From NCBI GenBank assembly GCA_963741955.1, contig CAVUKB010000004.1, positions 96,001-160,000 of the forward strand: 64,000 bases of DNA. The letters run 5' to 3'. The first letter of the stretch is position 1, and every line of letters starts with the position of its first letter. Below, in pieces: positions 12,001 to 49,628 of this stretch. Position numbers and translations under genes: made by a program. This stretch comes from an uncultured Acidobacteriota bacterium. Its GTDB lineage: Bacteria; Acidobacteriota; Thermoanaerobaculia; Gp7-AA8. The notes under the pieces are model-generated. The model ran no database searches, was not told the DNA's origin, and was given only the letters and a program-made list of their open reading frames with translations.

Positions 12001-15000
12001 CAGCGTGATCTCGGGTGTCGTCGCACCGCCGGTGATCGACGTTTCGGGAATCACCGTGGCGCAGACGAGCGGCGGTGGTCTGGTGAACGGCGGCGTGAGA
12101 TCCGTGACGGGAACGGGCGCCCTGAGTGTGACTCTGCGAAACGAGACGAGCGCCGCAACGTCAAGCAGTGTTGCAGTCTCCGCCGATGGGAGTTTCAGTG
12201 CGACGGTGAGCGGAGTACCAGGCGATCGTATCAGCGTCACGGTAACGGATGATTCGGGTCGGTCCACCGGCCCGACAGTGATCGGAGCGATCCCGTTCGG
12301 CGGTGCGATAACGACGGTACCGATCACGTATGGGATGACGAACAACGACGTCAACTTCCGTGCACGGCTGCTGGAGGTGGAAGGGACGAACCTGATCACG
12401 ACCGGATGGCACGACACGGACAAGGTGGTGCGATTCGATCTGACGGATCCGCGTTCGCCGGGGTACGTGGAGACGATCAACGTCGGCAACGGGAAAATCT
12501 GGGATGTCGCGCTGCGGAACGGGTATGCGTATGTGGCGGCGAGCTACTTGCGGGTGCTCAATTTGAACGTGACGCCAGCGACGGAGTTCACGCCAGACGC
12601 AGGCAGCCTCAACACGGCGGTATCGGTAGCGGTGGACGGAACGTACGCATTCGTCGGCGCGGACGGAACGAGCGGATGGATTCAGATTCTGGACGTGAGC
12701 AACCCGGAAGCGCCGCACTGGATCCGGAGGCAGAGTCTGGGCGGAGGAGTGAACTTCCACAAGCTGATCACGCTGGGAACCGACTACCTGATCGGGATCA
12801 CCCCGCAGGGGAACAACGATATCTGGATCATCGACCGGCGGGACATCAACAACCTTCGGGTGGTGGCGCAGCTGTTGATACCCGGGATGACGGCAAGCAC
12901 GGCGAGGCTCGAGGGAAACACGCTCTACGTGATCCAGCGCGGCGGCGGTGCGATTGCCATCGTAGACGTGACCGATCCGACGGCGCCGGCTCTCGACAGC
13001 GTCGAACAGACGCGAGGGCTCGCGTTCGGGCTCGATTCGAGCACTTCTCTCGTCGCCGTCGGCGAAGGATCTCCCGGCACGACTCTCATCGACACGACGA
13101 CCCCATCTTCGCCAATCGTCCTCGGTTCGCAGTTCCTCGGCGGAACGACCTGGGACGTCAGATTCGCGAACGGAGCGGTCTATGCGGCGCGGGAAGTCGG
13201 CATTGCGGTCATCGAAGACTTCAGCACGGTGGCACTCGCCCGATCCCCACGGCCGTTCGCTTCATCGAAGGCGGTGTCACCGGTAAGGCACGACTCGGAG
13301 GTGTTCCTTGCTGACCTCTCGAAGGTTTCGATAGTGCCCGGACACGGTGTCGTCACTATCCGAGGATCCGCTGCCGCGATGGCCGGTCCCGCGCCGCTGA
13401 CTGTCGAGATCACGAACGAGACTCTCGGTACCTCCGTCCCGATCGTGCCGGTCGCCGTCGACGGAAGTTTCGAAACGAACCTCGTTGCTGCACCCGGCGA
13501 CCACCTCACCCTACGCGCGACGTCCGGGACCGGCGAGACGACTGCTCCCCTGGATCTCGGTCAGGTGCCCCACTTTGCCCCCCCGGAGGGTCGCGTTCCA
13601 AACGAATCGTTCGACCCGGCGGGAGTGGGCCGAATACCGCGCTCTGCAGCCGCGATCGCCGCGGATGCATCCCCCGAGGAGCGCCGGCTTCCAGCCGGCA
13701 GCGGTCAGGCCTCTGCGCCTGACCGCGAGCGACCGCGCGACGACCGGCGGATGCTCGATGCGACACCGATTGCGAGATCTCACCGGTTGTCGTGGCTTTC
13801 CCCGCGAACGCCGATCGCATTCGCCATTCTCCCGAGCCTCGAGCCTCGAGCCTCGAGCCCCGCGTCTCTCACCCCGAGCCTCGAGCCTCGCGTCCTGTAC
13901 CTTCATCCTGGAGCAGCGATGACCTCACCCTCGCAGAAAGATGCAACCATGGATCAGCGTCAGAGAACCGCAGACTCGATGGCGCATGGTTCGACGCTAG
14001 GTAGCCGAACCCTGTTCGCGACTCTGATGCCACAGGGCGAGCAAGTGCGGTGCAGGTTCCCGTCAGAATTGAGCGAGCCGCTACAGTCGTGGCTCGCGAC
14101 CGCGGCTGTGGTGCCAGAGAGCGACGATCTCCACGCCGTGCGGCGTGATCTGATAGTAGAGCCAATAGCCGGTATGCCGAAGGATCAGCCGTTGAACCTG
14201 TCCGCTCCGACGGCCGTGAACGACTTGCCCGATCGACGGGTGTCTGCGAAGCATCTCGACCGCAGCGCTGATCTCCTGCTCCAGCAGTGTGGGTGCCTCG
14301 GGACGGTTCTGGTTCCACCACTCCAGCGCACGCCACGTCTGTCGCGCGGCGCGCGGAGCGAAGGTGACCTGCTCGATCAATCCGGAAGCCCTGACGGTCG
14401 ATGCTTCAGCACGTCTTCAGCGGGGATCCCTTCGCCTCGCCTCAACTCGAGCTGCGCCTGCCAGATCTCCTCGTCCTCTTCGTCGTTCAGCTCGTACGCC
14501 TCGTCCGGCTCGATGACGTTGATCTCCACCGAGGCACCCTCCGGGAGTTGTGCATCACTCTCGATCCGGATCTGCCCATCCACGATTCTTCCCGTCAGTT
14601 TCATCAGAGTTCCCCTTGCCGGCAGCATCGGCTTTACCCGGAGCAACCGGCGATGCGAGGAGGTAATTCTGCAGAACCCACTCTCCGCATCGATCGGCGG
14701 TCGCAATGTCCCTGATCTGTTTTCGGGGCGCGGGCGTAACCCGCAGCCGGACGTTCACTCTCTGGCCTCGAGCTCATCCAGAAACGCCCGGGCATCAGTG
14801 GCTCCGCCTTCACTCGCCGCCGCCACCGCTTCACGAAGCCAGACCTTCTCTTCATCCGTCAGCGTGACGGGCTCTTCCTCCAGCAGCGCGACTTTGACCA
14901 GCTGCCCTTCGGGAAGCGCTTCCGCATCGACATTCAGGCGCCCATTGACGACACGAGCGGTTGTGATCCTCATGAACTCATCCTACTCCCGGCGCGGAGC

Positions 15001-15253: not shown

Positions 15254-16826
15254 CAGGTGTGTAGCAGAGTTCATAGGCCGAGAGGATGGAATGCGATTGC
15301 TGACGTACAGAGGAACGCCATTGCGATCAGAGCTTCCGCGGTGTGAAAGCCGAAAGCGCGGTGACTGAGCATTCGGATCTTGTTGTTGCAGCCTTCAGCA
15401 ACTGCATTCGTGAGTCGATACTCGAAGTAACGGCGGATGCCAGGCCATTTCGCCGCGACGGTTCGCGCGAAGCGAACGAGGGGTTGAATGCGGCTATGAA
15501 CCGCGGACTGATACCAGCGCTTGAACCGTCGATCAGCTTGGCGGACGGACGAGGAGTCATAGATGTCCTGAAAGGATTCCTTGACCAGGTAACTGCGAAA
15601 GAGGGTGTGATTCATCCGCGCGAGCTCCGAGAGTTTCGCCTCCTCGGCATCACGCAGGTTCCAGGGGTTCTTCAGGAGGACGAACCGAGTGGATTTGAGA
15701 GCGGAGCGCTCCTCGCCGGTGGCCTTTCGCATCTCGTCCCGCCTCACCTGATCGATCGCATTCCCGAGGAGTTGGACCACGTGGAACCGATCGAAAACGA
15801 CCTCGGCGTTCGGCAGTCGGTCGCGAACAGCTTTCTCGAAGGCCGCGCTCATGTCGATGCTCACCAGACGGATTCGCGCGCAGCGCTCGGGGCCGAGCAG
15901 ATCGAACAGCCCGTCGAGAACCTCTGCACTTTTACCCTTCGCCGCCCAGATCATCTGCCCGGTCTCGTGGTTCGTGACCACGGTCATGAACTTCTTCGGC
16001 CGCCCCCAGCAGATCTCGTCGATGCCGATCCGGGTCAGATTCTCGAGCGCGTTCGGGTCGCGTTTTTCGGCAACCACTCGAGCGGCGATCCGTCCGGCCG
16101 TGAGCCAGCTGACCTTGAAGTACGCCGAGACCGCGGTTTGATTGGATCGCTGCAGAAACCAGGCAAGCTCGTCTTCGAACGCGCGGGTGAACATCGAACC
16201 AGGCCGTGCCCACGGAACCGCGGCCGTTCGCACCCCGCAGCGGCGGCAACGCACCCGCGGCAGATCCGCCCGCAGCATCACCCGGCATCCCCAGAGGCCG
16301 AGATGACGCCATTCGCGATGCTTCATCACCGTTCCGTGAAGCTCGGGAGCAACCCGTCCGCACCCTCCGCACCGCGGACGTCTCCACGTTGGACTCACGT
16401 CGAGATAGAGACTCCGAGCTTCGAACCGAACCCCGCGAACCGTTACGTTTGCCATGTTGAGCAACTTCCGGAACAATGTCGTCAGGCGCACCGTGCCTGT
16501 CCTCCCCGTGTCTTGGTTTCATCGACTACAGACTACGGGAAATGGGCAGCACGGTTCGCCGATTCCAACCTGCTATCGCTGCTTCGATCTTCACCTCTCC
16601 ACGAGCAGCGACTTTCGGGGCTCCTTCAGATCCTTCCGCGACGGCGGGGCAAGTTGTGGGAACGGCGGAAAACGCGGCGGCCGGGTGGCGGCGTTTTCCG
16701 CGGTTTCCACAACTTCGCTTTCCGAACGCTTCGGCGAACACCGACTTGCTCCTCGAAAACAGCCGCGTCGCCGTTCCTGCATGCCTCCGACAATCATTCC
16801 GCACCTACACACCTGTTAGGAGAACC
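15243..16826 (-). mobile_element. ISL3-family insertion sequence, copy 1 (1584 bp)
   Basis: 22-bp IRs GG(A/T)TCTCCTAACAGGTGTGTAG; 8-bp target duplication AATTTTTG at 15235-15242 and 16827-16834. Confidence 0.95.
15271..16491 (-). CDS. ISL3-family transposase
   Basis: CxxC zinc-finger motifs, 'IGIDE', 'SIDMS', 'VFDRFHV', 'TNAVAEGCNNKI...AFGF'. Confidence 0.95.
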   Translation of the reverse strand: MRLTTLFRKLLNMANVTVRGVRFEARSLYLDVSPTWRRPRCGGCGRVAPELHGTVMKHREWRHLGLWGCRVMLRADLPRVRCRRCGVRTAAVPWARPGSMFTRAFEDELAWFLQRSNQTAVSAYFKVSWLTAGRIAARVVAEKRDPNALENLTRIGIDEICWGRPKKFMTVVTNHETGQMIWAAKGKSAEVLDGLFDLLGPERCARIRLVSIDMSAAFEKAVRDRLPNAEVVFDRFHVVQLLGNAIDQVRRDEMRKATGEERSALKSTRFVLLKNPWNLRDAEEAKLSELARMNHTLFRSYLVKESFQDIYDSSSVRQADRRFKRWYQSAVHSRIQPLVRFARTVAAKWPGIRRYFEYRLTNAVAEGCNNKIRMLSHRAFGFHTAEALIAMAFLCTSAIAFHPLGL

Positions 16827-16844
16827 AATTTTTGCCGGCCCTCC

Positions 16845-17070
16845 GAGCCTCGAGCCCCGAGCCTCGAGTCCCGCATCCACTCTTCCGAGCCTCGAGCCCC
16901 GAGCCTCGAGCCCCGCGTCTCTCACCTCGAGCCTCGAGCCTCGAGTCTCGAGCTCCGCGTCTCTCACCCCGAGCCTCGCGTCCCGAGCCTCGAGTCCCGC
17001 GTCTCTCACCCCGAGCCTCGCGTCCCGCACCTTCAGCCTGGAGCAGCGATGACTTCACCTTCGCAGAAAG
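16845..17070 (+). repeat. Heptamer array with 42-bp period + RBS + MTSPSQK start module, copy 2
   Basis: Tracts start at 16845, 16887, 16929, 16971 and 17013; GGAG-cagcg-ATG at 17049. Confidence 0.85.
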
Positions 17071-20000
17071 CCATGAAAATGACGCAATCTCGCCAGACGG
17101 AGTCGCCCATCGGCCTCGACACTCAGAGACAATCAGACTGTCCCTCTCGAACCGGTTTATTCCGGACTACGGAGCGGCAGCAAGCGCGCGCGAGCGCCGC
17201 GCTCGTCGACACTGATCAGACAACCTGCCTGGATCGCCTCGGCGTGACTCTCGACGAGAGCAAGGATCATCGCCACGAGTTCCTCGTTCAGCACGTCCAC
17301 CATGCGGATCTGAATGACAGTGGGAAGACGCTGGGAGCTCAGGGCGAGGAGGTCGCTGAAGTCGAGGTCCCGGGTGACGACGACCCAGCCTTGCCGTCGA
17401 GCTCTCTCCAGAATCTCGGAATCAGCTGCGGTCGGCTCGCCGATCGACATCCAGTGAACGCTCTCGATCCCTCTTGTCGACAGCTTTCGCGCGAGGGAAG
17501 GAGCGAGATTGAAGTCGATCAGCAGCTTCACTGCGGGTCCGCAGCCTTACCGATCTCGACCTCGGCCTCGGACGAACGCCACGCTCCGTACGCCAGTGCC
17601 TCGCGGATGTCCGCTTCCTCGAGGTACGGATACTCGGACAGAATCTCCTCGGCAGTTCGCCCGGACGCAAGGAGCCCGAGGATCGTTCCCACCGTCACCC
17701 GCATCCCGCGGATGCACGGCTTTCCGCCCATGACTGCCGGATCCCTGGTGATGCGTGTCAGCCGATGCATGTCAGCCCTCCAGCGGAAGATCGGCGGTGC
17801 GGCTGCCGATCGTGTCCATTCCATCTCCCGCAACGCCACGGCCCGAACCCGAAATCTCGACAGGCCGAGGCATACTTCGAGCAGCCGCAGGAGCTCGGCT
17901 CTGAGCGGCCTCTCCGCCGCGCTGCTTCTCTTCTTCGCGCTACTTCCCGCCCTCCCTCTTTTCGCCCAATCTCCGACCGAAGTCGTCGTTCAGGAAGACT
18001 TCCAGTCGTACCCGACCCAGGCCAACCCGCAAGGCTGGGTCGATACCTCCGTCGGCAACCCGCACCCCCAGGCCGAGGGGCTGTACAAGACGTGGCCGGA
18101 TCCGACGCAGGGGAACAAGGGAGCGAATGTCGTCTACGGGACGAAACAATCCTCCGGCAAACCGGAAGGGCGCAACCCGCGCATCGGGACATTCTCCACA
18201 CTCGTCGATCACACATTCGGCACAAAGGGACGTTTCGAATACCGCGGGCGTTTCATCCGCACGCGCTCCGACGCGCGCATCGGCCTCACGTTCCTCTCCT
18301 CCTATCCCGACTCCGACCACTATTACCTTCTCGGCCTCTGGTCCCAGGCGACGTCGAGCAAGCTCACCATGCAGCTCTTCTCGTTCGGCGCGGGGACGCT
18401 GACCGGCACCATCGACAGCAACTTCACTCCCGAGCCCGGCAAGTGGATCCGCTTCCTCATTCAGGTCGACGGATCGGACGCTGGCAACAAAATCCGCGCG
18501 CGCTTCTGGATCGACGGCACCGACGAGCCGTCCGGATTCACGATCGAGGCGGAAGACTCCGCCGCGGGACATCTCGCGTCGGGCCGCATCGGTATCTGGG
18601 CCGCAGTCAAGGGCGACGCATACTTCGACGAGCTCTTCGCGAAGTACCCGGTCGACATCACCGCGCCCGCAATCTCCTTCCTCGAGTCGGGAACTACGCT
18701 CAACGACGGCGCGAAGTTCAACCGCGACGTCGCCCCCGCGATTCAGGTCGTCGACGACACCGACCCGAGCCCCTCCTGGTCCGCAACGCTCGACGGACAG
18801 CCGTTCACGTCCGGAACGACGGTCGCCGCCGAGGGAACGCATCTCCTTGCAGTCGACGCGGCCGACTCAGCCGGGAACGCGTCGCACGCCCAGCTCTCCT
18901 TCTTCATCGACAAGACTGCGCCGCTCCTCGCGGTTACCGAATCGGGCGCGCCACTCGCCGACGGCGCGATCTTCGATCACGATGCTGTCGTCTCGATTGT
19001 CGTGACCGACATCAGCGCGACCACCGACGCGATCCTCCTCGATGGCCAGCCTTACACATCGCTCACCCCGATCACCACGGAAGCGCAGCACGAGCTTTCC
19101 GTCTCTTCGATCGACGAGCTCGGAAACGGCCCCACGACGTTCGGTCCGGTTCATTTCTTCGTCGACGAGACCGCGCCGGTCGTGACCATTCTCCAGAACG
19201 GAGCGACGCTCCAGGAAGGCTCGGCGTTCAACCACGACGTCACCGGCTCACTCGCTATCGAAGACCTGACCCCGACCACGAGCTCCATGGCCCTCGACGG
19301 GCAGCCCTATGCGTCCGGAACGCCGATCAGCACCGACGGCTCTCACACCCTCGCCGCGACGGTCACGGACTCCGCTGGTCACACCACCACCGCCGGCCCG
19401 CTCCATTTCATCCTCGACGAGGCAGGGCCCACGGTCACCATCCTCGAGAGCGGCCAGCCGTTCCCGGCGGCCTATTTCTTCAACCGGGATGTCGTCGCGT
19501 CGGTCTCAGTCGACGACATCGCGCCGCACACCGCGACGATGTCTCTCGATGGTCAGCCGTACACGGAAGGGACGCCGATCACCGCCGAAGGTCCGCATGA
19601 GATCTCGGCGCACGTGACGGACACCGCAGGAAACGACGTGACCGTCGGTCCGATCGCGCTCACCATCGACAAGACTCCGCCCGTCGTGACGCTCCTCGAG
19701 AGCGGCCAGCCGTTCGCGGCGGGCCAGACGTTCCCACGCGACGTGGTCGCGGATGCCACTGCCACCGACACGATCTCGAAGGCCACGCTCACTTTGACCC
19801 TCGATGGGCAGACGTACGTCGCCTCCACTCCCGTCACCGCCGAAGGAGAGCACACCTTCGCCGCGACCGCCGTCGACCAGGGGGGGAACACGGCGTCCGC
19901 CTCCGTCTCCTTCGTCATCGACGAGACTCCCCCCGAGTTGTCGTTGCTCCTCGGCGGGCAACCGTTCCCGGCCGACCTCTGGACGAATCAGGATGTCACT

Positions 20001-23000
20001 CCCGAGCTCGACATCGTCGACATCTCCACCACCACGACCGACGCGACGCTCGACGGAGCACCGTACGCGATCGGCGCGCCCGTCTCTCTGGAAGGGGAGC
20101 ACGTTCTCGACGTCGCCGTGACCGATGCCGCGGGGTGGACCACGACGCTCGACGCGGTGACGTTCCACATCGACCGCGTACCTCCGGCACTCACTGTCAC
20201 TTCGCATCAGCAGGGTCAGGTCTTGCCGGAGCCGCGCGTCGTCCTCGCCGGCGGTGCGGATGACGCCGTGAGCGTCACGGTGAACGGCCAGACGGCGACG
20301 GTCGACGCGACGGCGAGAACGTGGACTGCGCCCGAGCTTCCACTGCTCGAAGGAAGCAACGCGTTCACGATCCGCGGGACGGACCGCGCCGGGAACAGCG
20401 GGGAGATCACGCTGAATCTAGTTGCCGACACCCGCGCGCCGGAGCTCGCGATCGTGGCGCCCGTTGCCGGAAGCTGCGTCGCCGGCTCGCCGCTCGAGAT
20501 CCGCGGTTCAGCCAGCGATCCCGAGATCGGCGACGTCGTGGTCTCCGTCGATGGAACGTCGGTTCCCGCCTCGCTCGACGCGTCCGGCAACTTCGTCGTC
20601 ACGTTCGCCAACCTCTCCGAAGGAGAGAAGAACGTCACCGTCACGGCGACGGATACGATCGGACATGCGACCTCGCTCGTCCTCCCGCTCAGCATCGACC
20701 GCACGCCGCCGGTCATCGCCGTCACCGAGGGCGGCAAGCCATTCACCGCGACGCTCGTGAACCGCCCGATTGCACTCTTCATCAGCACCAGCGACGCCGA
20801 CCCGAACGCGAAGCCGGTGGCAACGCTCGACGGCGCGGCGTACTCCTCCGGCTCCACGATTGCGAATGAAGGTGCCCACGCGCTTCAGATCACCGCGACC
20901 GACTGTGCCGGTCTCACCGCGACGAGCTCCCTTACCTTCACCATCGACACGACCGCACCGACCATCACGAACCTCCTCCCCGCCAACGGTGCCACGGTAG
21001 GGGAGATGCCGACGACGGTCACCGGCAAGACCGATCCTGACGTCCACGACCTCGTCGTTCGAGCCTCGAGCCTCGAGTCCCGAGCCTCGTCTTTCGCCCC
21101 CGACGGCACCTTCACCATCCCCAGCGTCCCCTTCGCCGAAGGGGAGAACCGCTTCACGATTCACGCGACCGATGACGCCGGAAACTCCAGCGACACGCCG
21201 TACGTCGTCACCGTCCGCACGACGACTCCTTCTCTCGAGATCCTCGACAGCGGCTCGCCGATCCCGCCCGGCGCGCTCTACAACCGCACCGTCACGCCGG
21301 TGATCCGCAGCGGAGCCTCCGACGCGACGATCTCCGCGACCCTCAACGGCGATCCCTTCACCTCGGGGACGGAGATCACCGCGGACGGCGCGTACACTGT
21401 CGACGCCACCGCCACCGACTCGCTCGGCCACAGCGGGAACGCAACCGCGACGTTCTCGATCGACCGCACGCCTCCCGCTGTCGCGATCGCCTCGCCCGCC
21501 GACGGCGCGGCGATCGACGCCGATCAGGTCGTGGTGACCGGCACGTCCGGGGATGCGACATCCGTCAATGTCGACGGCGCGCCCGCCGCACTCGACGGCA
21601 GCGGCCACTTCACCGCGACGCTTCCGCTCGAACCGGGCGAAACGGCGATTATTGCGACCGGCCGTGACGCCGCCGGCAACTCCGGCACCGCTCAGATCAC
21701 CGTCACCCGCGCCGCTGCTGCGACCGGCATCATCCTCACGTCACCCACCGACCACTCCCTGACCAACCGCCCGACCACAGTCGTCACTGGCCGCATCCTC
21801 ACTCCCGCAAATGCCGTGTCGCTCGTCATCGACGGCACCGCGCTCGGAGCGCAGGCTACCGGCCGGCGCTCTCCTTCAAATGCACCCGGATCCACGCCGC
21901 TCGCGACGGCCCATTCCCCTCTCCCCGTCCGGACCTTTGCCTCGGGCGTAAATCGAACTCCGGGGAGAGGGGTCAGGGGTGAGGGGCAACTACGCGCGCA
22001 AACCGAAGTTGTGAGCACGAGTCCCGAGTCCCGAGCCTCGAGCCTCGCAACTCCCTTCGACCCCACCGGCGCATTTCGCGTCACCGCGTTCCCTCTGGTC
22101 GAAGGCGAGAACACCATCACCGCGACCGTCACCGACAAGTCCGGCAAGACCAGCACCGCGAGCGTCCGGATCACAGCAGACCTGACCCCACCCGCTGTGT
22201 CGCTGCTCGAATCAGGCCAGCCTCTGGAGGACCAGGCCCGTTTCGCGACGCAAGCCCTCCTCTCCGCGACGGCGACCGACTCCGGTGCCGCCATCGACGC
22301 GACCCTCACCATCGACGGCGCGTCTGCCACGTCGCCCGGCACGATCACGGCTGCCGGCCCGCACATCGCAATCGCCTCGGCACGCGACACGGCCGGCAAC
22401 GTGACCCGCGTCCAGCGCACGTTCTTCATCGGTACGGAGCAGGGGAGTGGGTGCGGTCTCTCCGCATTCGATCCTGCCGATGGCTCCGTCGTCACCGCGA
22501 GCTCCGTCACGCTCGTCGGCCGCAGCGGCGGCGCAGCCGGCGTCACGGTCAACGGTGTCCCCGCAGTGGTCGCGAACGGCTCGTTCTCCGGCACCGCGGA
22601 GCTCCCGCAGGAAGGGCCGAACCTCGTCACCATCCGCTGCACCGACGCCTCCGGCAACCCCACCGGCGGCCCGGTCACCCTCACTCTCAACCGCGTCACC
22701 GGCAATCCATCCGTTTCCATCACCACTCCCGCCGAGATGGCGACGTTCGCCGCCGGAACCGTCGATGTCACCGGCACGTACGCCGATGCCTCCCGCGTCG
22801 ACGTCAACGGAGTCGCCGCGACGCTCGCGAACGGAACCTTCAGCGTCGCCGCGCTCCGTCTCTCTCCTGGTCTGAACATCCTGGTCGCCCGTGCCACCAA
22901 CGAAGCCGGCCGCAGCTCCATCGCTTCGCGCCGCGTCCTCTATCTCGACAAGTCGTCCGTGATCTCCATCGACTGGCCGAACGACGGCTTCACCACCGGC

Positions 23001-26000
23001 GCCGCCTCTCTGGACGTCAGCGGCACGTGGAGCAATCTCGTTCCGTCGACCATCACAGTCAGTGTGAGCGGCGTGCAAGAGGCGAGAGACGAGAGGCGAG
23101 GGGCGAGAAGGAACACAACAGGTCGGCTGCGGTCGGCGGAGCCACGATCGAAGAACGATGTCGCGAGCGACGACGGTACGGTTTCTTCACGCACCGCCCG
23201 CCACTCGACACACGCCTCCGATCGCATCGCAGCGCAGGGAGAGAAGAATGAGCTTCGACTATCGCGATCTGAAAGCGTGGCAGCTCGGAATGCAGATGGC
23301 TCGTCGGGTCTACGAGATCACGCGAGATTTTCCGAAGCGAGAACAGTACGGCCTGACGCAACAGATCCAGAAGGCAGCCGTTTCGGTTCCGTCGAACATT
23401 GCGGAAGGTCATGCGAGGGATTCGACGGCGGACTTCCTCCGCCATCTGTCGATCAGTCGCGGTTCGCTCGCGGAATTGGAAACGCAGCTGATCTTGGCGA
23501 AAGCTTTTGGATATCTCCCTCTGCAGAGCCTGGAGGAGTTGATGAAAGTATCGGACGAGCTGAGCCGAACTCTGAGGGGACTTCAAAAATCGTTGAGGCG
23601 TCGACTGGAGAAGAAACCATAGCGGAAGTGTCGATCGATGCGATTGCGTGGTCCGACACGACTGGAAACTTCATCGCTCACGCGGTGCCCTTGCTTCCCG
23701 GTACTCAGACCATCACCGTGACGGGTTCGACCATGGATGGTCGCATCGCCACCACGAGTATTCGGGTGACCAGAATCGATGGCGAATCAGACATTACGAT
23801 CGATTCGCCTCTCGCCGAATCCTGGTTCAGCGCGAACGCGGGAGATCCGATCTCCGTCGCCGGCACCTTCACTGCAGCTCCCGGTTCCAATGTCGAGGTG
23901 AATGGTTCGACGGCGACCCTCGGCGTCGCCTCTTCTTCGACCAGAACAGTCACCCTCGCCGCGTCCTCAACGAGCGCTGTCTCTGCGCACCCCGTTTCTT
24001 CGCTCGCCTCTCGCCTCTCGCCTCTCGCCTCTTCTTCGACCAGAACAGTCACCCTCGCCGCGTCCTCAACGAGCGCTGTCTCTGCGCACCCCGTTTCTTC
24101 GCTCGCCTCTCGCCTCTCGCCTCTCGCCTCTTCTCCTTACTCTGCAACCGCCGCGTTCTCCTCCTCCGACCCCACTCCCATCATCGCCCGCGTCACCCAG
24201 CCCGACGGCCTCTCCGCGATCACGACCATCTTCGTCCATCACCTCTCGGGCGCTCCTGCAGTGAAGGACGTCTTCCCCGCGGACGGCGCCACTTCCGTCG
24301 ATCCCGCAGCGCTGATCCTCGTCTCCTTCTCCGCGCCGATGGACCGCGCGTCGCTCTCGGCCGCATTCACGCTCGAGAACATGAGCGGCATGCCCGTCGC
24401 CGGACAGATGCGTCTCGATCGCGATGTCCTCAGCTTCGCCCCCGCGACGACTCTCAATCCCGGCGAGCGCTATACCGTCCGTCTCTCGACCGCCGCGAAG
24501 GACCTCGCCGGGAATGCGCTCGCCTCCGAGTTCACCAGCAGCTTCACGATCTCCACCACGGCGCCATCCACCGCGCCGGTGGTGAACCCGGTCGCCTCGC
24601 CCCTCTGCTCGGATCGGGTCGCCCTCAGCGGCACGGCACTTGCGGGGTCACGTCTGCGGATCGATTTCAAGGGCGTTCCGCAGTTCACGGCCGCGGCTCC
24701 GACGGAACGTGGCATTTCGATCTCGCCATCCCCGCCGAATCGGGATTCGACGTGGTCCGCGTCCGCATCGTCGGCGGCGACGGCACGCTCTCGCCTGCGG
24801 CCGAAGTGAAGTTCCAGGTCGACTGCGCCGGTCCGCAGCTTCTCGGCGCGTCCTACGACCGCACCACGAACATCGTCACCATCGACGTTCTCGAAGCCGA
24901 TGGATCTCGCATCAGCGTCCACCGGCCGAACTCCGCTCTCTCTCTCCAGATCGCCGACGGCACGATCCTCGGCGGCACCGTCGCGCAGGGCGACGAGCTC
25001 CTCTTCGCTCACCCTTACGCCAGCATCCGATCTGACGCAGCAGACGTTCACGCTCAACGTCACGACCGCGATCAAAGACACTACCGGCCGCAACCTCGTC
25101 TCCGGCTATACGCAGACCTTCGCCACCGGCTCCGGATCCGAACCTCCTCCCACCGACGGCACCGGCTACATCTCCGGCAAGATCCTCGACGCCGCCACCG
25201 GTCGCCCCCTCGCGGGCGCGGACATCACCATTGACGTCCCCGTGAACGCCTTTGCCCGAGGGGAGCAAGCTCATAGCTTGCTCTCTCGTTCCACTGGATC
25301 CGCACCCATGCCTCTCGGGACCTCCGGTTCCCCTCTCCCCGTCCACACCCAGGCCTCGGGCGCAATTCGCACTTCGGGGAGAGGGGTCAGGGGTGAGGGG
25401 CAGCTACGCGCGCTGAGCGAAATCGTAAGCGCCGCTTCGTCCACCCTCTCCTCCGACGCCACCGGCACCTATACCACCCGCCTTCCCGAAGGCGCCTACA
25501 CCATCCACGCATCCGCTCCCGGCTACACCGAGGTCTGGCGCCAGATCGTCGTCCCGGCCGGCCAGGGCGTCCTCCCGATCGACATCCGTCTCACACCCCT
25601 CGGCGCCACCGGCACCGTCGGAGCGGCCTCCATCGAGCCCCGAGCCTCGAGCCTCGAGCCTCGGTTCCGTCGGCTCTCCCACGAGCCCCGAGCCTCGAGC
25701 CTCGAGCCTCGGCTCTGTCGGTTCTCCCACGAGCCCCGAGCCTCGAGCCTCGAGCCTCGGCATCCTCTTCAGACCTGACCCTCTCCCACGGCGGCGAGAC
25801 ATCCGTCACCCGCCCCGCGACGCTGACCGTCCCCTCCGGCGCCGATCACCTCCGGCACGACACTGACACTCACCTCCGTCGGCGGCCAGTCCCTCGCCGG
25901 CCTCCTCCCTCTCGGCTGGTCCCCGCTGGCGTCCACAGAGATCTCCTCCGTCGCCACGTCCGCGAACGCAGCCCGAGGGGAGCGAGCTTATAGCTTGCTC

Positions 26001-29000
26001 TCTCCGAAGACATCCGCAGAAATCGGACCTGCCAGCGCGAATCGCCCAGCGTCCTCCCTCGCCGCTCCGGTTTCGTCCTCACTCGTCTCTCGCCTCTCGT
26101 CTCTCGCCTCTCTCCCCAACTCCACTCTCACGTTCACCGTCCCTTACACCGATATCACCAGCGCGGCTCAGACCCTCACCGCCGTCCGCTACGACAGCGA
26201 TCGCGACGAATGGATCGTCCTCGAGCCCGTCGTCAGCATCACCTCCGACGGCCCCGCCTCGATCACCGTCGACTCCACCGGCGCGTACGCTCTCGTCTAC
26301 CCGGATAAGGACTCGGGGAGTACTCTGCAGACTCCACCGCTCCCCATTCCAGGCTCGGCGCTCGCCGGCGTCACTCCCGTCGACCTCGATCCGACGACCA
26401 TCACCGCATCTCTCACCCTCGATCCTTCGATCGTTCTCCCCAGCGGCCGAACCGTCGGCACCCTCACGGTCTCTCCGAGCCTCGAGCCTCCAGCCTCGAG
26501 CCTCGCGTTCCCCTCGGGCACCGCAGTCCAGGCGTTCGTCCACGAAGAGCTGCGTCTCGTCGACGGAACCGTCGTCGCGGACCAGCCGTTCTCCGCGGAC
26601 CTCGTCCTCTACCGCACGCTCTCCGGCGCTCCGGCGACCGCGGCGTTCCACCTCCAGCCGAGCGCGAAGGCCGCGACGGTTCCGCTGCAGATCGGCTACG
26701 ACCACATCCGCGTCTTTCCGTATCCCGGACGCCTCGACCGCGGCACACTCATCGGCCCCGAGGGTGGACGCGTTCCCTCGGATGGGGGAGTGGAGCTCGA
26801 GATCCCGCCCGGCGCAGCCACCGAGCCGCTCCACGCCAGCGCGACGTCGCTCGACGCCACTGCGCTCGCTTCCTACGGCACCATCGACGGCTTCACCCTC
26901 GTCGGCGGCTTCACGTTCTCGCTCGACCGCGCAGTCGGGGGAGAAGAGGCGAGAGACGAGAGGCGAGAGGCGAGTGGATCTGACGCCCGAGGCTCTCGTG
27001 GCTCGGGCTCTTCGTCACGCGCATCGGAGATTGGAGCTGGCAACGGTGATCGTGAAGCGTTCTCTCTCGCCTCTCGTCTCTCGCCTCTCGCCTCTGACGT
27101 CGCGTCCCCCACGCTTCTCGCCTCCGCCCGCGCGACCTTCTCCGTCGACACGACCAATCTCACCGCGCCCCAGTTCATCCTCGCCGAGGTCCTCGGCGAC
27201 ACGCCGTACGGCCGTGTGATCCGTCTTGCGAACGTGATGGAACCACTTGTTGGAGGAGCCGAGGCTCGAGACTCGAGGCTCGAGGCTCGCAGCGGCATCG
27301 CCCGTGGAGAGCAGGCTTATAGCCTGCTCCCTCCGGTACCATCTTCAGACACGGGTGTCGCGAACGATCATCGTCAGGCGTCCTCTCTCGCCTCTCGCCT
27401 CTCGTCTCTCGCCTCTGATTCCACGCGCATCACCACATCCAGGATCGATCCCTCGAACCTCCCTCTCGACGGCATCTCCCACTCCGGGATCTACCTCCTC
27501 CTCCGCGCGAACCAGCCCATCGCCTACGCGACGGGTCTCGTCCGCTTCGGCATCTCCGGCCTCTACGCCTCCGACGCCAGCGTCCTCTCACTCACGTCGA
27601 CGCCACTCGGGACGGCGTCGGTCAAGGAGGCGAGAGGCGAGAGGCGAGAGGCGAGGGGAGGAACGAATTCCGGACTTCTGTCATCGTCACCCGCTGATGC
27701 GCAGGCTCATAGCCTCCGCTCTGGTTCCGGCAAATCCGTACCCGCGACTCTCGCGACGCCCGCTTCCCCTCTCCCCGTCCGCACTCTCGCCTCGGGCGCA
27801 AATCCCAATTCGGGGAGAGGGGTCAGGGGTGAGGGGCAACTACGCGCGCAGAACGAGGTCGCTCGCAGGGCCTCCTCCCTCGCCTCTCGTCTCTCGTCTC
27901 TCGCCTCTTCTCCCGCGTCGCTCGCCGCTTCGTCCCCCCTCGGCACCACCGACCTTACCCGCCCCACCGGCCTCTTCTCCATCCCCGTCGTCGCCACTCC
28001 CGCGGATCCCTTTGCGCTCCAGCCCTCGCACCCATCCACCGGCGCCGGCACCCCCTGGACCGCAAACTCCAGCCCTGACCCCGGCATCGTCATTCACGTT
28101 GGCGATCTTGTTCTCACATCGCAGCCGCCGCAGCTCCAGCACGTCAACGTCATTGGCGGCGACCCCTCCGGCACGATCGACCTCGTCGCCGTGAACGGGG
28201 CAGGCGAGATCTCCCTAGGCACGAGTGTTCAGGCCCTCTTCGACGTGAACCTCGATCCGGCATCCGCCGGCGCGACCTCGCTCGTCGTCACCGACGCGTC
28301 CACGCAGACCGTCGTCGCGGGCACCGCGATGCTCGCCGGCTCGACCCTCACCTGGACCGCATCCACTCCGAACGCGCTTGCGCCGTCGAGGCAATACAGG
28401 GTGACCCTCTCAGCCACGCTCCGCGGCGCGAACGGCGCCCCGCTTGGGACGACCCGCACGTTCGCCTTCACCACCGTTTCGCAGATCACCAGCACCGAGA
28501 TCGATCCTTCCAAGATCCACATCACCATCCCCGACGCGAACGGCGTATCCACAATTTACGGCCTCCCCGGCGCGCTCCCCTCCGGCTGGCGCGCCGTCGC
28601 CCTCCGCCGCGGCACCGCCTTCGTCACGCAATACCAGACCACCGCCGCAGGGGATGGAAGTTTCTCGTTCGCGATCGGCGGGTGCGGGGGAGGGACGGGG
28701 GTCGGGGGTCAGGGGTCAGGGGTCAGGGAGCTGAGTCGATCTGATCGCCGGACCTCTGAGATTTCCCGCGACGAAGCCTTGTCCCTGTATTCGTCGACCC
28801 ACACGTCACCCCGACCCCTGACCCCCGACCCCGGACCCCTAAGCTCCGTCTCGCAACCACAATTACGAAAGGCCACTCATGAAGATACAAACCTATCGCG
28901 ATCTGGTCGTCTGGCAGGAATCGATGCAGCTCGCGAAACAGGTGGTCCTGATCGCGCGTCGGTTTCCTCGGGAGGAACTCTTCGGATTGTCGGCGCAGGT

Positions 29001-32000
29001 CAAGAGAGCAGCCGTATCGGTGCCGTCGAATATCGCGGAAGGGCACGCGCGGGATTCGACGAAGGAGTATCTCCATCATCTATCGATTGCTCACGGTTCT
29101 CTGGCCGAAGTGGAGACGCAGCTCCTGCTGGCGAAGGATCTTGGCTGGGGAGACTCGTCTTCGATCGAAGGAGCTCTCCAACAGAGCGATTCACTCGGCA
29201 GGAAGCTTCACGCATTACGCAGATCGCTTCGATCGCGCCGCTGACGGCGGCTCTCCCTGACCCCCGACCCCTAACCCCTGACCCCCACTCCCGTCAGGCG
29301 ACTACGACATGCACGGACCAGCTCTCCCTCACCGACCACATCTCCCTCGAGATCCTCAACACCGCCGACAACATCGCGGCGATCATCCCGCTCACGCCAT
29401 TCGTCACGGCGGACGGCCACGGCTTCGTCGCCCCGCCCGACCAGGACATCACGTTCATCATCTCGGACGAGATTACCGTCCACGTCCCCGCCGGCGCGTT
29501 CGACCAGCCAACGCTCGTCACCGCCACGCCGTCCACGAAGGACGCCTTCTCCGAAGTCCCGAACTTCGACACAGAGCTCGACTACAAAGCCTCGGTCAAC
29601 CTCTCCTTCGACTGCACAGTGGCTTCTTCGTCCTCCCCGAGCCTCGAGCCTCGAGCCTCTAGCCTCGGTTCCCCAAGTCTCGGTTCCCCAACGAGCCTCG
29701 AGCCCCGAGCCTCGAGCCTCGCGTTTCCCTGTCGCGCGAACAAGCCCCTCGACCTCTCCATCCCGGTTCCCGCAAACACCGACCCCACGAAGCAATACCT
29801 CCTCGGCTGGCTCGGCCAGTCCATCCGCGGCCCGCGGATCATGATCGTCGACACCCTCCGCATTGACGGCGACCACTTCACCACCACGCCCGCGCCGTCG
29901 ATCGGAACGACCAGTGCGCAAACCGTGCACGCATCGTCGACCTTTTCAAACTCGTCGCTCTACCAGGTTCGAGATCCCGGAACGTACGTCATCACCTCAC
30001 TGCTCAGTCCCTACGCCTGGGTGGATGTCGTCGTCAGATCGGCTGACCTCTACTGGTCGACGTCGTTCTCTCTCTTCGTCGCAGAACGCTACATCACGAT
30101 GGCGAAGGGTCACGTATACATCCCCGTGCTGACGGACACGCCCTTCCGCGTCTACGGCGTGGACGCGACCGGTTTCGAAACCTATTCGCGCGATTACGAC
30201 GGAATCGTTCCTGGAGATCCTGGAGTTTCGGTAGCACTCCCATCGGCATCTCCCGATAACAATGGACCTTATCCCGTGTGGGGCAGCCCTTATCGCGTCG
30301 ATTCCGTAATCCTTCGCGATGGAGACGTGATCGTTCCAAACATCAAGGTCAATCAGTCGGGAGGAGTTGCGACGGTCACGCAGAACTCTTCCTCCACCAC
30401 CGCGAGTGTTCTTTCGAAGGGAACGAAGGTTCAGGCATTCGACGTCGAAACCGGCGCGGTGAACAGCGCGACAGTCGGTGACGGCGGCAGTTTCTCGATG
30501 TCAGTTTCTCCGGTCCATTCCGGAGACCGTCTTCTTCTCTTCATCAGTGCCTCCGACGTCGATCCGTCGAGTCTCGTCACCGTGGTTTTCAACGAGCCGC
30601 TCCAGCTCGCGAACATTCCGGAAGGCATGAGCTCCGCGGATGCCGAGATCGCAAACGAGAAGTTCCTGCACGACCTCATCGGCCTCGAGCACTTCACTAG
30701 TACGGGATGGGTACCGATAACCGACCAGGTGCACTTCCGGCACGATTCGGGAGACCGCCGAATCGTCCTCGAGTTGCCGTCCTCGCTGGTTCGAGGCGAT
30801 CGGTATCGGGTTCACCTCAGCGAGGCAATCACCGACGCCGGGGACAACCACATCGGATCGGTTAAGGACTCCAGCGGGAAGGTCACCAACGGCGCTGGAC
30901 TCCCGTTGGATCTCGAATTCACGGTCCGCAGCCCACACGGCGCGATCTCCTCTTTCGACATCGATCCGAGCACGGCTCACCATGGAGGGCTCGTGCGTGA
31001 CATCGCACGCAACGACACCCTCGTCTTCGTCTCGGCTCTCGACGGCGGAATCCTCGCCTACGATACATACGATCCGGCTGCACTCGCAAAAGACGGAAGC
31101 ACTCCGGCGCCCCTTTCCTTCGTGCCGGCCGCATGGACCAACGATGCCGGACAGCAGGTGACCGGCGGGATGGACGAGCACTGGGCGCTTGCCGTCGATA
31201 AGCACGGGCGCGTCTTTTCGACCGGCTTCATGGCCTCGTTCTCGGTCCTTCGGACTTACCGCGTGGAAGATTTCTGGAAGGCCTCCACTCAGCCCATGTG
31301 TGCCGGATTCGATCAGGCGCCACCGCACGCCCTCTGTAGATACGAGGGCTCCTCAATCATCGCCTGGCGCCCCGGAGTGTCGCTCGGCATTCCCGGGATC
31401 GACGATTCCCTCTACGGACTGACGGAAGGCTATCCGCGAAAGATCCGAGTCATTGAGCAGGACGATGGAGGGGAAGCTCTAGATCGAGACAACTTTGCGT
31501 CGACCTACGGAGGCGCGATCCAGAAGACCTTCAGCAATGGGATTCAGAAACTCTCCGTCACCGTCGCATGGGATACCACGAATCCCTACCAGCTCCAGCG
31601 CATTACGGTGGAGAACCTGACTCAACAGCTTCACTGGTCTGCCGACGCGACCCCGACGTCTCCTGCCGTGATCTCGGAGATCCTCGCCAAACCGGACGAC
31701 AAGCTCCGAATTGTGAAGAACGAGCGCACGTGGGCCGTCGTATCTCTCTTCGGCTACGGGATCGCCACCTACGACGTGAACGCCATCGAATCCAATGATT
31801 CACCAGATAAGGCTGCGGGTTACACCAACGTACCCGAACAGCTGTTCCTCTCGTCCGCCAGCGTCGACGATGCGTGCGACGGCCGGACGTTCCCGACCGA
31901 GGCGATCCGGGATTTGGCCTTCAGTCCCGATTTCGTCGCGAAAGTGGAAGTCGACGCCACGACCAACACAGCGACCATTGGGATCGACGCTCTCGATGTC

Positions 32001-35000
32001 CGCAAAGGCGTACTCGACGTCCTCACCCCGATCGGTGGGGGACTCCAGAAGGGGTCATGCCTCCAGCGGTGGGCGGGACTCATCGTGAACGACCCGGCGT
32101 CCGGATACCTCCTGAGCCGGTTTCAGGGCGTCAACGACGAATTCACGGAGAAACATCACCCGAACCCGTTCATTCGATTCAGCTCGGCCGACTATTTCGA
32201 CTGGACTGTCCAGGCAGAAGACAACACCATCGGACTTCGGGGATCGGAACCCGGCACGAACGTTCATCGTGAGTACGCGCTGGTCGCCGGTGGAGACTAC
32301 GGGCTCCTGGTGGTCGAGATCGGTGGCGATCCCCTCCCGAGCAAGGCTCCAGTGACTCATCCGCTCGATGCGGTGAACCTGGTCGACGACATCTGGTTCC
32401 CTGCAGGGGCCTATGCCGTTCGAGCGATTCCCGGTACCTCGATGGCCGCAGTCCTCGATGGGAAGCACCGGCTGCTGCTCGTCGACCTCTCGAGGATCGA
32501 CGAACGGTGGGACGAAGGCGTCGGGCCGAACGATTTCTTTCCCATCCCGGATGCGGCGATGAAGAACAAAGGTGGGCTCCCTGACGAGGTGGGTGTGGAC
32601 GACCCACGCATCATCTGGAAGTCGAAAGAGGACTTCATCGCTGGAAGCATTGCGCCGATCGTCGACCCGCGCACGGGCATCGTTTACGCGGGCGATTCCA
32701 CTGGCAAGAAGGTGAAGATCGGGTCAGTCCTCGATCCGCGGGTACGAGCACTCGCAGATCCCGATGGCACGGGACAACTGCGGGAGGTTGGCTCGGTCTT
32801 TGGCCTCGGAGTGAAGACCCTTCTCGCTCTTCCTTCGGTCGGTGGGCTCTCGGCGTTTCGATTCGAGGTCGATCTTCCCGGAGGCGTCGCTCAGTCGATC
32901 TCGGATCACAAACTCCACTTTGCCGTCGAAAGTGAGCGCCTCCCGGGTGTGGCCGAATTGCAGACCGCCGCTCCATGGCCGCTGTCGAGCCTCCGACTGA
33001 CTACACGTTCCGGTGAGGCGGAGCTGACCGGCAGGCAGACCGATATCGTTCTCGAGCAGGAGCTCACGAGCGGATTGACGCCGGAGGAGGTGGCGGAGCT
33101 CGCCCCGATCCTTCGAAAGCAGGAAGGATCCGCGCGATTCGTCTCGCCCTGGATCGTGGTCCTCGCAGATCCGCGTGCGAGCGAAACGGCGGCCCCACCC
33201 GTGGGCGGCCTTGCCGCTGCCGGATGTGAGAACTGCGTGCGGCCCGAGGCGCTTCGGAACAAGAGTCGAAGCGATGGCGTGTACGAGATCATGGCCACCG
33301 GCCCGCGGATTGCGATTCGTCCCGAGTGCGAGCTCGCCGCAGGATGCAACAACGTATTCGCGGGAACCCCGTACGAATATCTTGGCCAGAAGGGGAGACT
33401 CGAAGCGGTCCTCCAGACCACTCCCGCCGATACGATTCGCCCGACGGAAGCGCTCGTCGCCGCACAGAACCCTCCCGTCGCCGACGGGATGTTCCAGGAC
33501 GCGATCTATCTTCACAGTGGCGAGCTCGAGACTGTCTCGACGGACCTTGATGCGGGAGGTCGCGCTGGCTTCGAGGTCACGATCGATCGCTTCTACCGAT
33601 CGCGATCGATGGGAATGTCCCCGCTCGGCAATGGATGGGACTCGCCGCTGTACCGGCGTTTGCGGCAGCTTCCGGATGGGAGCGTCGAGTACCGCGACGG
33701 GGCGGATGTCTGGATCTTCAAGACCGGCGACGCCAGCACGGGAGTGGCGGACGTTCTCGCATCGATCGTTCGTCCGACTCTCGTCTACAAGTCACCGGCC
33801 GGACTCGATCTCAAGCTCGTCGCGAATCGCGACGGATGGGTCCTGATCGACCAGCAGTTCCGACTCACCCGATTCGACACGACCGGGCGCCTCGTCTCCG
33901 AGTCGGACGTGATGTACGACCCGAACAAGCCCGGGTCGGGCAACGTCATTCACTATCTCTATGATGACGAAGGTCGCCTCGCGCGCATCGTCGATCCTGT
34001 TGGGCGAGAAACGACGCTCACGTACTGGCACTACGGCGACGACCCGGCGAGGCGCTACCCCGGCCTTCTCGCGAAGGTCACCGACTGGCGTGGCCGTGAG
34101 GTCGAATACGACTACGATGCCGAAGGTCGCCTCACGGACGTTCGGCTCCCCGAAGCCGCCGCAGCGGACGGCGTTCCGTCGAAGTATTCCCATAGCCGGT
34201 GCGGCGCGCCCCGTGATCCACTACACGTACGACAAGACTCCCAGCCAGATCGCGTCGGGTCTCGATGCCCAGCACTCCCCGGAGGTCCTCGACTCGATGG
34301 AGTTCGTCGGAAATCTCGGCAGCGAAACGGATCCTGCCGAGGTCGCGTCCGGCGGCCCGCCGCGAGTGAGCTACACGTACGGCGCCGCTGGCGACGCGCT
34401 CACGCGCGACCGCATCTCGATCCAGCACTGGCCGTGCGGAAATCACGTCGGTGGTAGCTGCTCGAACCTCGACGCAACGCTGTCCTGGACCGCTTCGAAC
34501 GCGGTCAAAACGACCGATGTTCTCGGGCAGGTGCGGGAGTACACGCTGACCGATCCCGCGAAGTATGACGAAAAGGTTCACATCGGATCGATCAAAGCGT
34601 CCATACCAGCCATCGACTACTCGAACGGATTGCCGGAGGTAGCGCAACCTTCCCTGACACCCACCAGCGCCGACATTTCTATGAGTTACGAGTACGACGA
34701 CGCCGGAGAGATCCACATTGCCGACTCGTCCACGGGCCTCAAAACGCAACTCGACCACAAGGCGGCGAACAACGGGGCATCGGGCGAGCTGCTCTACGGA
34801 ATTGTTCAGATGGCACCGTCAATCGGTCAGTTAATCGCGAGCGTCGGTTACGACAATGTGCATCCGACCTCATCGAACGTGCTCTTTCAGATTGGGCGTC
34901 CGGATGCGGCGACAGGCAAGGATGTTTTTCGTGAACTTTCCATCGGCACACGCGATCGATCGAGCATCGAGCGCACCGATGCGGGAACGAAGAGCACCAC

Positions 35001-49575: not shown

Positions 49576-49628
49576 ACACATTTCAGGTTGGCGTAGCGAC
49601 GGGCCAACTCGGCCTGGATCTCTACCTG

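Follow-up and report, generated by a model that had tools for sequence, protein, structure and literature searches.

Heptamer tracts in a giant RHS-type gene of an uncultured Acidobacteriota bacterium as probable arms of small hairpin-forming insertion cassettes

Tandem repeats of a seven-nucleotide unit have been described both in the intervening sequence (IVS) of a bacterial 23S rRNA and as dispersed repeats in bacterial genomes. Here we compare these systems with a cluster of heptamer tracts in a stretch of 64,000 nucleotides (hereafter the window) from an uncultured Acidobacteriota bacterium (Thermoanaerobaculia; Gp7-AA8; GenBank assembly GCA_963741955.1, contig CAVUKB010000004.1, positions 96,001 to 160,000), where most of the tracts lie inside one giant gene and a few lie beside genes for small four-helix-bundle proteins. 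The IVS of the Coxiella 23S rRNA is described as a selfish element with an S23p open reading frame (ORF) and terminal inverted repeats that form a 28-bp stem, and three tandem heptamers and a degenerate fourth precede the ORF (PMC4990558). According to the same source, this IVS is excised by RNase III, the S23p protein of Xanthomonas is a toroidal homopentamer, and the function of the S23p gene in rRNA intervening sequences is unknown (PMC4990558).

Dispersed heptamers are best documented in two xanthomonads, which carry 186 and 183 repeats of the GGGAATC type with 2–26 units, most of them with four, and 70–75 of them in convergent pairs; these repeats were interpreted as quadruplex-forming, and quadruplex formation was observed in vitro (PMC4692102). 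The same paper describes bacterial heptamer repeats as over-represented and without an established account. One of its supplementary tables places, between bccP (XCC0517) and XCC0516, a repeat of four units (28 nt) that overlaps the start of XCC0516, and the term S23 is absent from the supplements (PMC4692102). Palindromic inserts in coding sequence are known from Rickettsia, where small palindromic elements occur in unrelated ORFs as in-frame translational fusions (PMC10969869, a 2024 review of MITEs, or miniature inverted-repeat transposable elements); neither ‘heptam’ nor ‘intervening sequence’ appears in that review. In the full-text literature that was searched, which excludes most subscription journals, no paper was found that makes a general connection between heptamer repeats and four-helix or S23p genes. 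Two further systems are relevant to the shape of such proteins. Avd, the accessory four-helix-bundle protein of diversity-generating retroelements, assembles as a pentamer, and ring proteins of the TRAP type read tandem RNA repeats.

A period-7 scan of the window recovered 25 tracts, all confined to positions 13833–29721, whereas 100 second-order Markov simulations of the window gave a mean of 0.36 and a maximum of 2. Periods 4–12 other than 7 yielded at most one tract each, and Tandem Repeats Finder returned arrays identical to those of the period-7 scan, with ~4.1–4.9 copies. A preliminary description of this DNA, made from its letters alone, had listed 26 starts of four-unit tracts; 25 of these were recovered, and the remaining one (16971) is a degenerate stretch below threshold. 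The three heptamer families that it had recognized in both orientations are real in the scan (13 tracts of family A, 9 of B, and 3 of C; units are given in Table 1, where a prime marks the complementary orientation). Tract length ranged from 25 to 37 nt, with a mean of 30.5 and a standard deviation of 2.8 (n = 25). The earlier statement that tracts almost always comprise exactly four units (28 nt) therefore holds for the approximate number of units but not for the exact length, since the most common length was 30 nt (nine tracts), or four units plus two bases. On the plus strand, 20 tracts are pyrimidine-rich and five are purine-rich, and each of the latter is the left arm either of a paired structure or of a block that carries a gene. 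On the coding strand, every solo tract in the window is rich in pyrimidines, in line with the strongly negative GC skew at 24–30 kb.

The tracts are concentrated in a single gene. Four are intergenic (one at 13833 and three at 16844–16952), and the other 21 are found within a giant polymorphic-toxin gene of the RHS type, where they make up the ends of 13 insert blocks. This gene has domains of the Ig-like, CarboxypepD_reg, and RHS types and ends in a Tle1-like C-terminus (Pfam), and its relatives are RHS giants at 36–59% identity in metagenome-assembled genomes (MAGs) of Thermoanaerobaculia and other Acidobacteriota. Between ~17.9 and ~34.2 kb, GC content at third codon positions (GC3) traces a single coding frame (p%3=0). 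This periodicity is lost at every tract or block and then resumes in the unchanged frame. In pairwise alignments with ten homologs (36–59% identity), blocks I1–I8 (25.2–29.7 kb) are absent from all ten; the blocks at 21051–21086, 21860–22050, 23073–23630, 23997–24131, and 26476–26505 were defined by GC3, repeat membership, and gaps in BLAST alignments. Thus, the tracts belong to repeat elements that were inserted into a coding gene and are not free microsatellites, a setting that the preliminary description had not noticed.

The inserts leave the host frame open. Over 2,755 nt of inserts (block I2 excluded), the host frame contains no stop codon, compared with 11 and 28 stops in the other two plus-strand frames and 12–26 in the minus-strand frames, and it is open even through the two gene-bearing blocks of 558 and 636 nt. 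Block I2 is the exception, with two stops in the host frame and a frame change afterwards. In 12 of the 13 blocks, the host frame flanks the insert on both sides, and the same 12-of-13 proportion shows the pattern of Rickettsia palindromic elements, namely a palindromic repeat within an ORF with the host frame preserved. The peptides that the inserts would encode in this frame are rich in Ser, Pro, Ala, and Arg, and three homologs (P0004, P0002, and P0011) contain peptides of 10–11 residues with a seven-residue period. The locus therefore resembles Rickettsia palindromic elements and intragenic MITEs in having in-frame palindromic inserts within an ORF; it differs from the former in that those elements are ~150 bp long and have neither heptamer-periodic arms nor a four-helix gene.

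Some of the tracts are paired as arms of potential hairpins. The B'/B pair of block I4 folds into a stem of ~29 bp (−91.1 kcal/mol, z −5.9), and the C/C' pair upstream of the gene in block I7, which was the only pair folded in that block, gave −90.5 kcal/mol (z −5.8); such pairs comprise ~29–30 bp. Inverted pairs also share non-repetitive sub-terminal sequence (families D6 and D9). Other arrangements also occur. Blocks I2 and I8 and the intergenic array at 16844..17032 are tandem copies of an arm and a spacer with periods of 48, ~55, and 42 nt, respectively; each period of the intergenic array consists of about four units and a 14-nt spacer, and the array begins 17 nt past the end of a copy of an ISL3-family insertion sequence (IS). 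Two tracts (S1 and S5) are solitary inside domains. At 23926–24123, a perfect in-frame tandem duplication of 99 nt (33 codons) carries one B tract per copy, which points to a very recent event.

A separate element, the DE repeat of 178 nt, is present in three copies at 74–79% identity (21851–22028, 25265–25442, and 27701–27878). It contains a 9-bp hairpin in which the copies differ on both sides of the stem with pairing kept, and a palindrome that ends in four degenerate GGGGNNA units and so contributes three further four-unit tracts. A similar nested palindrome occurs inside trpE at a Nitrospirae locus described below (L070, positions 460–520). Two segments that follow intergenic A tracts (13837–13940 and 16967–17070) are 81% identical and lead to a short conserved stretch initiated by ATG. 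Searching positions 13000–30500 against Rfam at E ≤ 1 revealed no known RNA family and no rRNA; seven sub-threshold matches to microRNA precursors reflect the long hairpins only.

Two of the 13 insert blocks carry a complete four-helix-bundle gene, h1 in I7 and h2 in S3, and a tblastn search of the window revealed no others. Their products are 57% identical to each other and score 118 and 122 bits against TIGR02436, for which the NCBIfam cut-off is 24. Codon starts of both genes fall at p%3=1, compared with p%3=0 for the host, so that each is a complete gene one base out of phase with the gene that contains it. Gene h2 is preceded by a B' tract and block S3 has this left arm only, whereas h1 is preceded by C and C' tracts and followed by a second C' tract, such that the C arm is complementary to C' tracts on both sides of h1. 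The preliminary description had cited Avd as a homopentamer in this context, but these proteins are not Avd: both are TIGR02436/PF05635 proteins of the S23p type, with only weak matches to bAvd and DivGenRetAVD and with 25.2 and 29.9 bits against the Avd equivalog NF033474, for which the cut-off is 80. Pfam scans of 49 ORFs or pieces of ORFs, which cover part of the ORFs of the window, detected no reverse transcriptase; a template/variable repeat pair was not looked for. The likeness to the Avd of diversity-generating retroelements is thus that of a related four-helix-bundle protein. The homopentamer that the description had invoked is borne out for a solved relative of h1, Xanthomonas XCC0516 (PDB 2GSC), which was deposited with five chains and is in keeping with the toroidal homopentamer mentioned above.

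Collectively, this architecture is closest to ORF-bearing 23S rRNA IVSs of the Coxiella, Leptospira, Brucella, and Xanthomonas type, which likewise have an S23p/PF05635 gene and heptamers beside the ORF, and in which the gene is in a hairpin loop closed by a stem of ~28 bp, as may also be so here. It differs in that the cassettes bearing h1 and h2 are located in a protein-coding gene, and others in intergenic DNA, rather than in helix 25 or 45 of 23S rRNA. It further differs in that three arm families occur together, that most copies lack a gene, and that the host frame is kept open. The heptamers of Xanthomonas (GGGAATC), Nostoc (GGGGAYT), and Calothrix are similar in their seven-nucleotide unit, their four-unit majority, and their many dispersed convergent pairs. 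Those repeats are 89–93% intergenic, however, whereas 21 of the 25 tracts described here are inside a gene and 22 of the 25 are without G runs.

To place the window among other genomes, we scanned genome contigs with a query of three perfect A- or B-type units and obtained at least 122 stretches from many phyla, 80 of which have full 2-kb flanks; counts given for these loci apply to the matches listed. The 161 evaluable tracts in the 80 full-flank loci most often have four units (55 tracts), followed by three (30) and five (24), with a tail beyond 15; their lengths range from 17 to 139 nt, and 79 of them fall within 25–37 nt. The longest tract, 394 nt, is in a short-flank locus, giving an overall range of 17–394 nt among the matches listed. 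The peak at four units anticipated from the window thus recurs elsewhere, but with a long tail in place of a constant, and when other genomes are considered, four units are a mode and not a law; the uniformity of the window is unusual. Longer mosaics of successive blocks of about four units with variant heptamers occur in a related Thermoanaerobaculia MAG (L006, 1900–2180), and blocks of four or five units with unrelated heptamers are arranged end to end in intergenic DNA of an Acidobacteriota MAG (L057, 1860–3220). These strings of blocks look as if four-unit arms were modules that settle side by side. In another Thermoanaerobaculia MAG (L068), B'/B hairpins are situated between genes.

A four-helix gene was present in two of the 80 full-flank loci among the matches listed, in both cases within inverted tracts. 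In one (L033), A-type arms of 30 and 30 nt surround a four-helix homolog with 47% identity. In the other, from a Nitrospirae MAG (L070), trpE and trpG flank the gene, the arms of which measure 34 and 37 nt and are built from a different unit, and the reading frame of trpE continues across two tracts and a palindrome.

The converse search started from the gene. A tblastn search of plasmids with h1 gave 26 records, mostly from Nostocales but also from Gemmatirosa, Azospirillum, and others, of which 22 were inspected. A period-7 tract is present within 130 nt of the gene in 19 of these 22 homologs, and on both sides in 15; the remaining three genes have octamer or irregular tandem flanks. In 50-kb control stretches from two of these plasmids, only one weak period-7 tract each was detected. 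The co-localization of tracts with four-helix genes that the preliminary description had proposed is therefore supported, and the linkage is real and general across loci and phyla, although 21 of the 25 tracts in the window are not beside such a gene. Flanking tracts range from 17 to 107 nt, with 25 of 34 between 25 and 38 nt and a few long arrays of 90–107 nt. The heptamer unit varies between gene lineages. The upstream arm is usually purine-rich on the strand of the gene, where cores resembling GGAG or GAGG are frequent, and the arm downstream of the gene is complementary to it (loci L123–L146). Near-duplicates in this sample (L127 equals L129, L131 is close to L132, and L126 is close to L130) are too many to separate common descent from specificity of unit for gene.

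Several of the plasmid four-helix genes are wedged within operons, including between ribonucleotide reductase subunit genes, between cas6 and cas4, and between cas10 and cmr3. At three loci (L125, 1501–1869; L133, 601–957; L134, 604–963), the gene and its heptamer arms are inside CRISPR-cas operons. A figure legend in PMC10910872 lists ‘23S rRNA IVP’ among CRISPR-linked domains, and hitchhiking of this kind in cas operons could account for that listing.

Our observations suggest that the tracts are probably arms, 28–30 nt in length, that belong to a family of small insertion cassettes able to form hairpins, some of which carry a four-helix gene, together with gene-less derivatives. A complete cassette would comprise two inverted arms of about four tandem heptamers around a TIGR02436/PF05635 gene, as in the 23S IVS of Coxiella, and the incomplete forms, which are much more common, would be gene-less hairpins (arm, loop, and arm), single arms, and tandem copies of an arm and a spacer. 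Arm families A, B, and C and the separate DE repeat may have accumulated in the giant RHS gene and in the intergenic region upstream, with some copies nested or adjoining. Only insertions that left the host frame open would have persisted, as with Rickettsia palindromic elements, and because frame-keeping insertions persist, a 30-nt arm (10 codons) could stand alone inside a domain. The tracts would be uniform because each copies an arm of fixed length and is not an array growing in place by slippage. The length of the arm itself is probably set by the function of the paired arms as a stem of ~28 bp. One candidate for that function is an RNase III substrate, by analogy to what has been shown for rRNA intervening sequences; a second is a possible binding site of a pentameric ring. 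We infer that the cassettes may be mobile by some mechanism, that their RNA may be processed, that translation may proceed through the inserts, and that protein and repeat might make contact.

Several observations weigh against this interpretation. Only four of the 25 tracts touch a four-helix gene, the other 21 being in gene-less hairpins or solitary, and family A is without a cognate gene in the window. Likewise, only two of the 80 full-flank loci among the matches listed hold a four-helix gene, and the source genome itself is not among the matches listed by that scan, which required three perfect units. Block S3 has one arm, h1 is located between arms of the same orientation (C'...C'), and the flanks of two plasmid genes (L134 and L124) are also direct; the four-helix gene could therefore be a passenger that landed in pre-existing hairpins or tracts and not their parent. 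Slippage clearly acts on such tracts elsewhere, as their lengths show (17–394 nt among the matches listed; 17–107 nt near genes), and Coxiella strains have two or three heptamer units (PMC4990558). As in MITEs, inverted arms are present, but there is no consistent target-site duplication at nine junction pairs and no transposase relative was found here; the ISL3 copies are free of tracts. No empty site was found in a close relative. Finally, the assembled host gene contains five frame changes, at ~24700, 24885–24990, 25754, 25843–25878, and 34100–34240 (tblastn against homologs), and part of it may be decaying.

The frame changes also bear on the assembly. An independent MAG protein (P0013) is 99–100% identical to window positions 29277–37914 and is uninterrupted across ~34.2 kb; because it is continuous there, at least the frame change near 34.2 kb is a difference between assemblies, either an assembly error or a polymorphism. 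Its coverage includes block I8, and its contig starts inside a C' tract, as would be expected if short-read assembly breaks at such repeats. An assembly artifact was rejected as an explanation for 29277–37914, which this protein covers, and the remaining region rests on one assembly.

The alternative that survives best, a mechanism put forward in the preliminary description, is that a pentameric ring of four-helix proteins binds the heptamers as TRAP does, with one unit to each subunit, that the footprint sets the length at four to five units, and that gene-less tracts are used in trans. The tight linkage of four-helix genes and tracts is consistent with such a ring, as are the five chains of 2GSC, the toroidal homopentamer cited in PMC4990558, and the four-unit tract carried by XCC0516, the gene for that very protein. 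The same architecture recurs with a lineage-specific unit (h2 with B', h1 with C, and the L033 homolog with A), and one length recurs across unrelated units both in the window and at other loci. As with TRAP, there would be a homo-oligomeric ring and a number of repeat units near the number of subunits. The mode is four units and not five, however, and gene-flanking tracts vary from 17 to 107 nt. Three of the 22 plasmid genes have flanks that are octameric or irregular, and the repeats here, unlike those of TRAP, form inverted pairs able to make double-stranded stems, which wrapping of a single strand would not need. Moreover, the Coxiella S23p protein is suggested not to be made in vivo, yet its IVS keeps the heptamers and the stem (PMC4990558). 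We consider it unlikely that a ring of this kind explains the tracts.

A broader proposal joins the cassettes to the ring. Architecture of the cassette type was seen in Acidobacteriota, Nitrospirota, Cyanobacteriota, Alphaproteobacteria, and Gammaproteobacteria, and it is possible, though we offer this tentatively, that heptamer-armed S23p cassettes and their gene-less derivatives form one widespread selfish class, so far unrecognized, in which the ring recognizes its own arms and measures their length. If true, a single class would explain the excess of heptamers in bacterial genomes, the origin of ORF-bearing rRNA IVSs, and the function of TIGR02436, and its cassettes would also be able to colonize coding genes in frame.

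Ordinary slippage would account for the tracts differently. In that case they would be microsatellites of which coding selection keeps the frame-preserving lengths (7n + 2 = 30 nt for n = 4), mimicking a fixed length. Indeed, the most common length corresponds to 10 codons, identical units form long variable arrays in other genomes, and unit number varies among Coxiella strains (PMC4990558) and from 2 to 26 in Xanthomonas (PMC4692102). Slippage microsatellites are, however, expected to show a broad and roughly geometric distribution of unit number, whereas all 25 tracts of the window fall within 25–37 nt; a slippage array would show a far wider spread, in agreement with what the preliminary description had argued. 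Tracts of seven or 10 units would also pass selection for frame, yet the longest tract has 37 nt. The intergenic tracts (13833 and 16844–16952) have about four units as well, and composite blocks need only a total that is a multiple of three, yet each of their arms has four units. Inverted pairs share sub-terminal sequence that is not repetitive (D6 and D9). Four units are also the mode in 133 tracts from other genomes without a spanning open frame, among the matches listed, and in the mostly intergenic repeats of Xanthomonas (PMC4692102). Selection for frame alone was thus rejected as the cause of four units, given the intergenic tracts and the arms of composite blocks, and slippage is in our view very improbable as the origin of the tracts.

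Still less credible is the view that the tracts are regulatory repeats forming G-quadruplexes or i-motifs, as proposed for the heptamers of Xanthomonas and Nostoc, with four units as the minimum for an intramolecular structure. Four runs of at least three G are present in family C and in the DE repeat, which both have four GGGG runs, many arms beside four-helix genes are G-rich, and the four-unit majority and in vitro quadruplexes of PMC4692102 point the same way; but 22 of the 25 tracts belong to families A and B, the units of which have no run of three G or three C although the tracts are of equal length, and gene-flanking arms at L070, L131, and L134 are also without G runs. We can all but dismiss the idea that the segments are lineage-specific low-complexity linkers under selection at the protein level and not inserted DNA, for although they are open in the host frame and encode peptides rich in Ser, Pro, Ala, and Arg, identical 30-nt sequences are found in either orientation and also in intergenic regions, the codon-position signal in GC3 is lost inside them, two blocks hold complete genes that are read in a different frame, a CarboxypepD_reg domain is split by one block, and related hairpins are found between genes in L068. 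None of these three explanations (selection for frame alone, quadruplexes, and linkers at the protein level) accounts for all of the data.

Under the favored interpretation, that of insertion cassettes with heptamer arms, the window and the 26 other four-helix genes examined outside it tie together the excess of bacterial heptamers, the S23p gene of rRNA intervening sequences, and the large uncharacterized TIGR02436 family. The hypothesis that arises is that the four-helix protein, or RNase III, acts on heptamer-built arms of ~28 bp. Cassettes, including one with a complete gene in another frame, can sit in a coding gene without closing its frame. This matters for the annotation of giant genes in MAGs and for their assembly, given that an independent short-read contig ends in a tract.

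Table 1. Positions within the window of the host gene, the insert blocks, the heptamer tracts, and the four-helix-bundle genes, with the units of the three tract families.
Feature	Position	Strand	Content or evidence
Family A			GAGCCTC / GAGGCTC; 13 tracts
Family B			TCGCCTC / GAGGCGA; 9 tracts
Family C			TGACCCC / GGGGTCA; 3 tracts
A tract (GAGCCTC type), intergenic	13833..13859		period-7 scan
Intergenic A array	16844..17032		tracts 16844-16868, 16886-16912, 16925-16952, then degenerate units
Host gene, giant surface/RHS polymorphic-toxin gene	17751..39645	+	Pfam, GC3 periodicity, homologs, tblastn frames
Block S1	21051-21086		solo A tract 21059..21084 within Ig-like domain
Block S2	21860..22050		178-nt DE repeat, then A tract 22018-22047
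Block S3	23073..23630	+	B' tract (GAGGCGA) 23075-23107, then gene h2; no right-hand tract
Gene h2, 124 aa, PF05635/TIGR02436	23248..23622	+	Pfam E=1.3e-37; NCBIfam
B tract, copy 1 of 99-nt duplication	24003..24032		
B tract, copy 2 of 99-nt duplication	24102..24131		
Block I1	25240..25440		DE repeat within CarboxypepD_reg domain; degenerate (GGGGNNA)x4 end; no A/B/C tract
Block I2	25632..25830		A tracts 25634-25663, 25679-25711, 25727-25759 in 48-nt tandem unit
Block I3	25947..26110		hairpin D and B tract 26076-26112
Block S5	26476..26505		solo A tract, 30 nt (10 codons)
Block I4	26934..27095		gene-less hairpin: B' arm 26945-26974, loop ~90 nt, B arm 27064-27095
Block I5	27243..27425		A' tract 27260-27289, hairpin D, B tract 27385-27416
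Block I6	27588..27929		B' arm 27627-27655, DE repeat in loop, B arm 27879-27908
Block I7	28680..29315	+	C 28692-28728, 80-nt spacer, C' 28809-28839, gene h1, C' 29255-29285
Gene h1, 121 aa, PF05635/TIGR02436	28879..29244	+	Pfam E=3.2e-35; NCBIfam; PDB 2GSC E=1.3e-25
Block I8	29619..29735		A tracts 29635-29666, 29692-29721; 39-codon gap in several homologs

The surroundings of the host gene include two copies of an ISL3-family IS (15243–16827 and 47992–49576), each of 1,585 bp with a 406-aa transposase on the minus strand, which are 99.8% identical. ISL3 was rejected as an autonomous parent of the cassettes, as neither copy has tracts inside; the ends of the IS and the arms were not compared. 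The four intergenic tracts adjoin toxin-antitoxin genes and a tract-free ISL3 copy. A ParE toxin gene (14081–14380, minus strand) and a DUF433 / DUF5615-PIN pair (17157–17839, minus strand) lie in this upstream region, and at 60117–61856 (minus strand) a TIR-domain gene comes after a DUF4238 gene; these genes look like toxin-antitoxin and defense-type genes.

Downstream of the RHS gene, positions 39869–59660 contain an array of orphan toxin cassettes (WHH nuclease, Tox-REase-7, PT-HINT, and NucA/NucB DNase, the last with an immunity gene of the SUKH type). Two segments in and beyond this region (52084–52932 and 62383–63231) match the end of the RHS core at 82% identity, as displaced RHS tips typically do.

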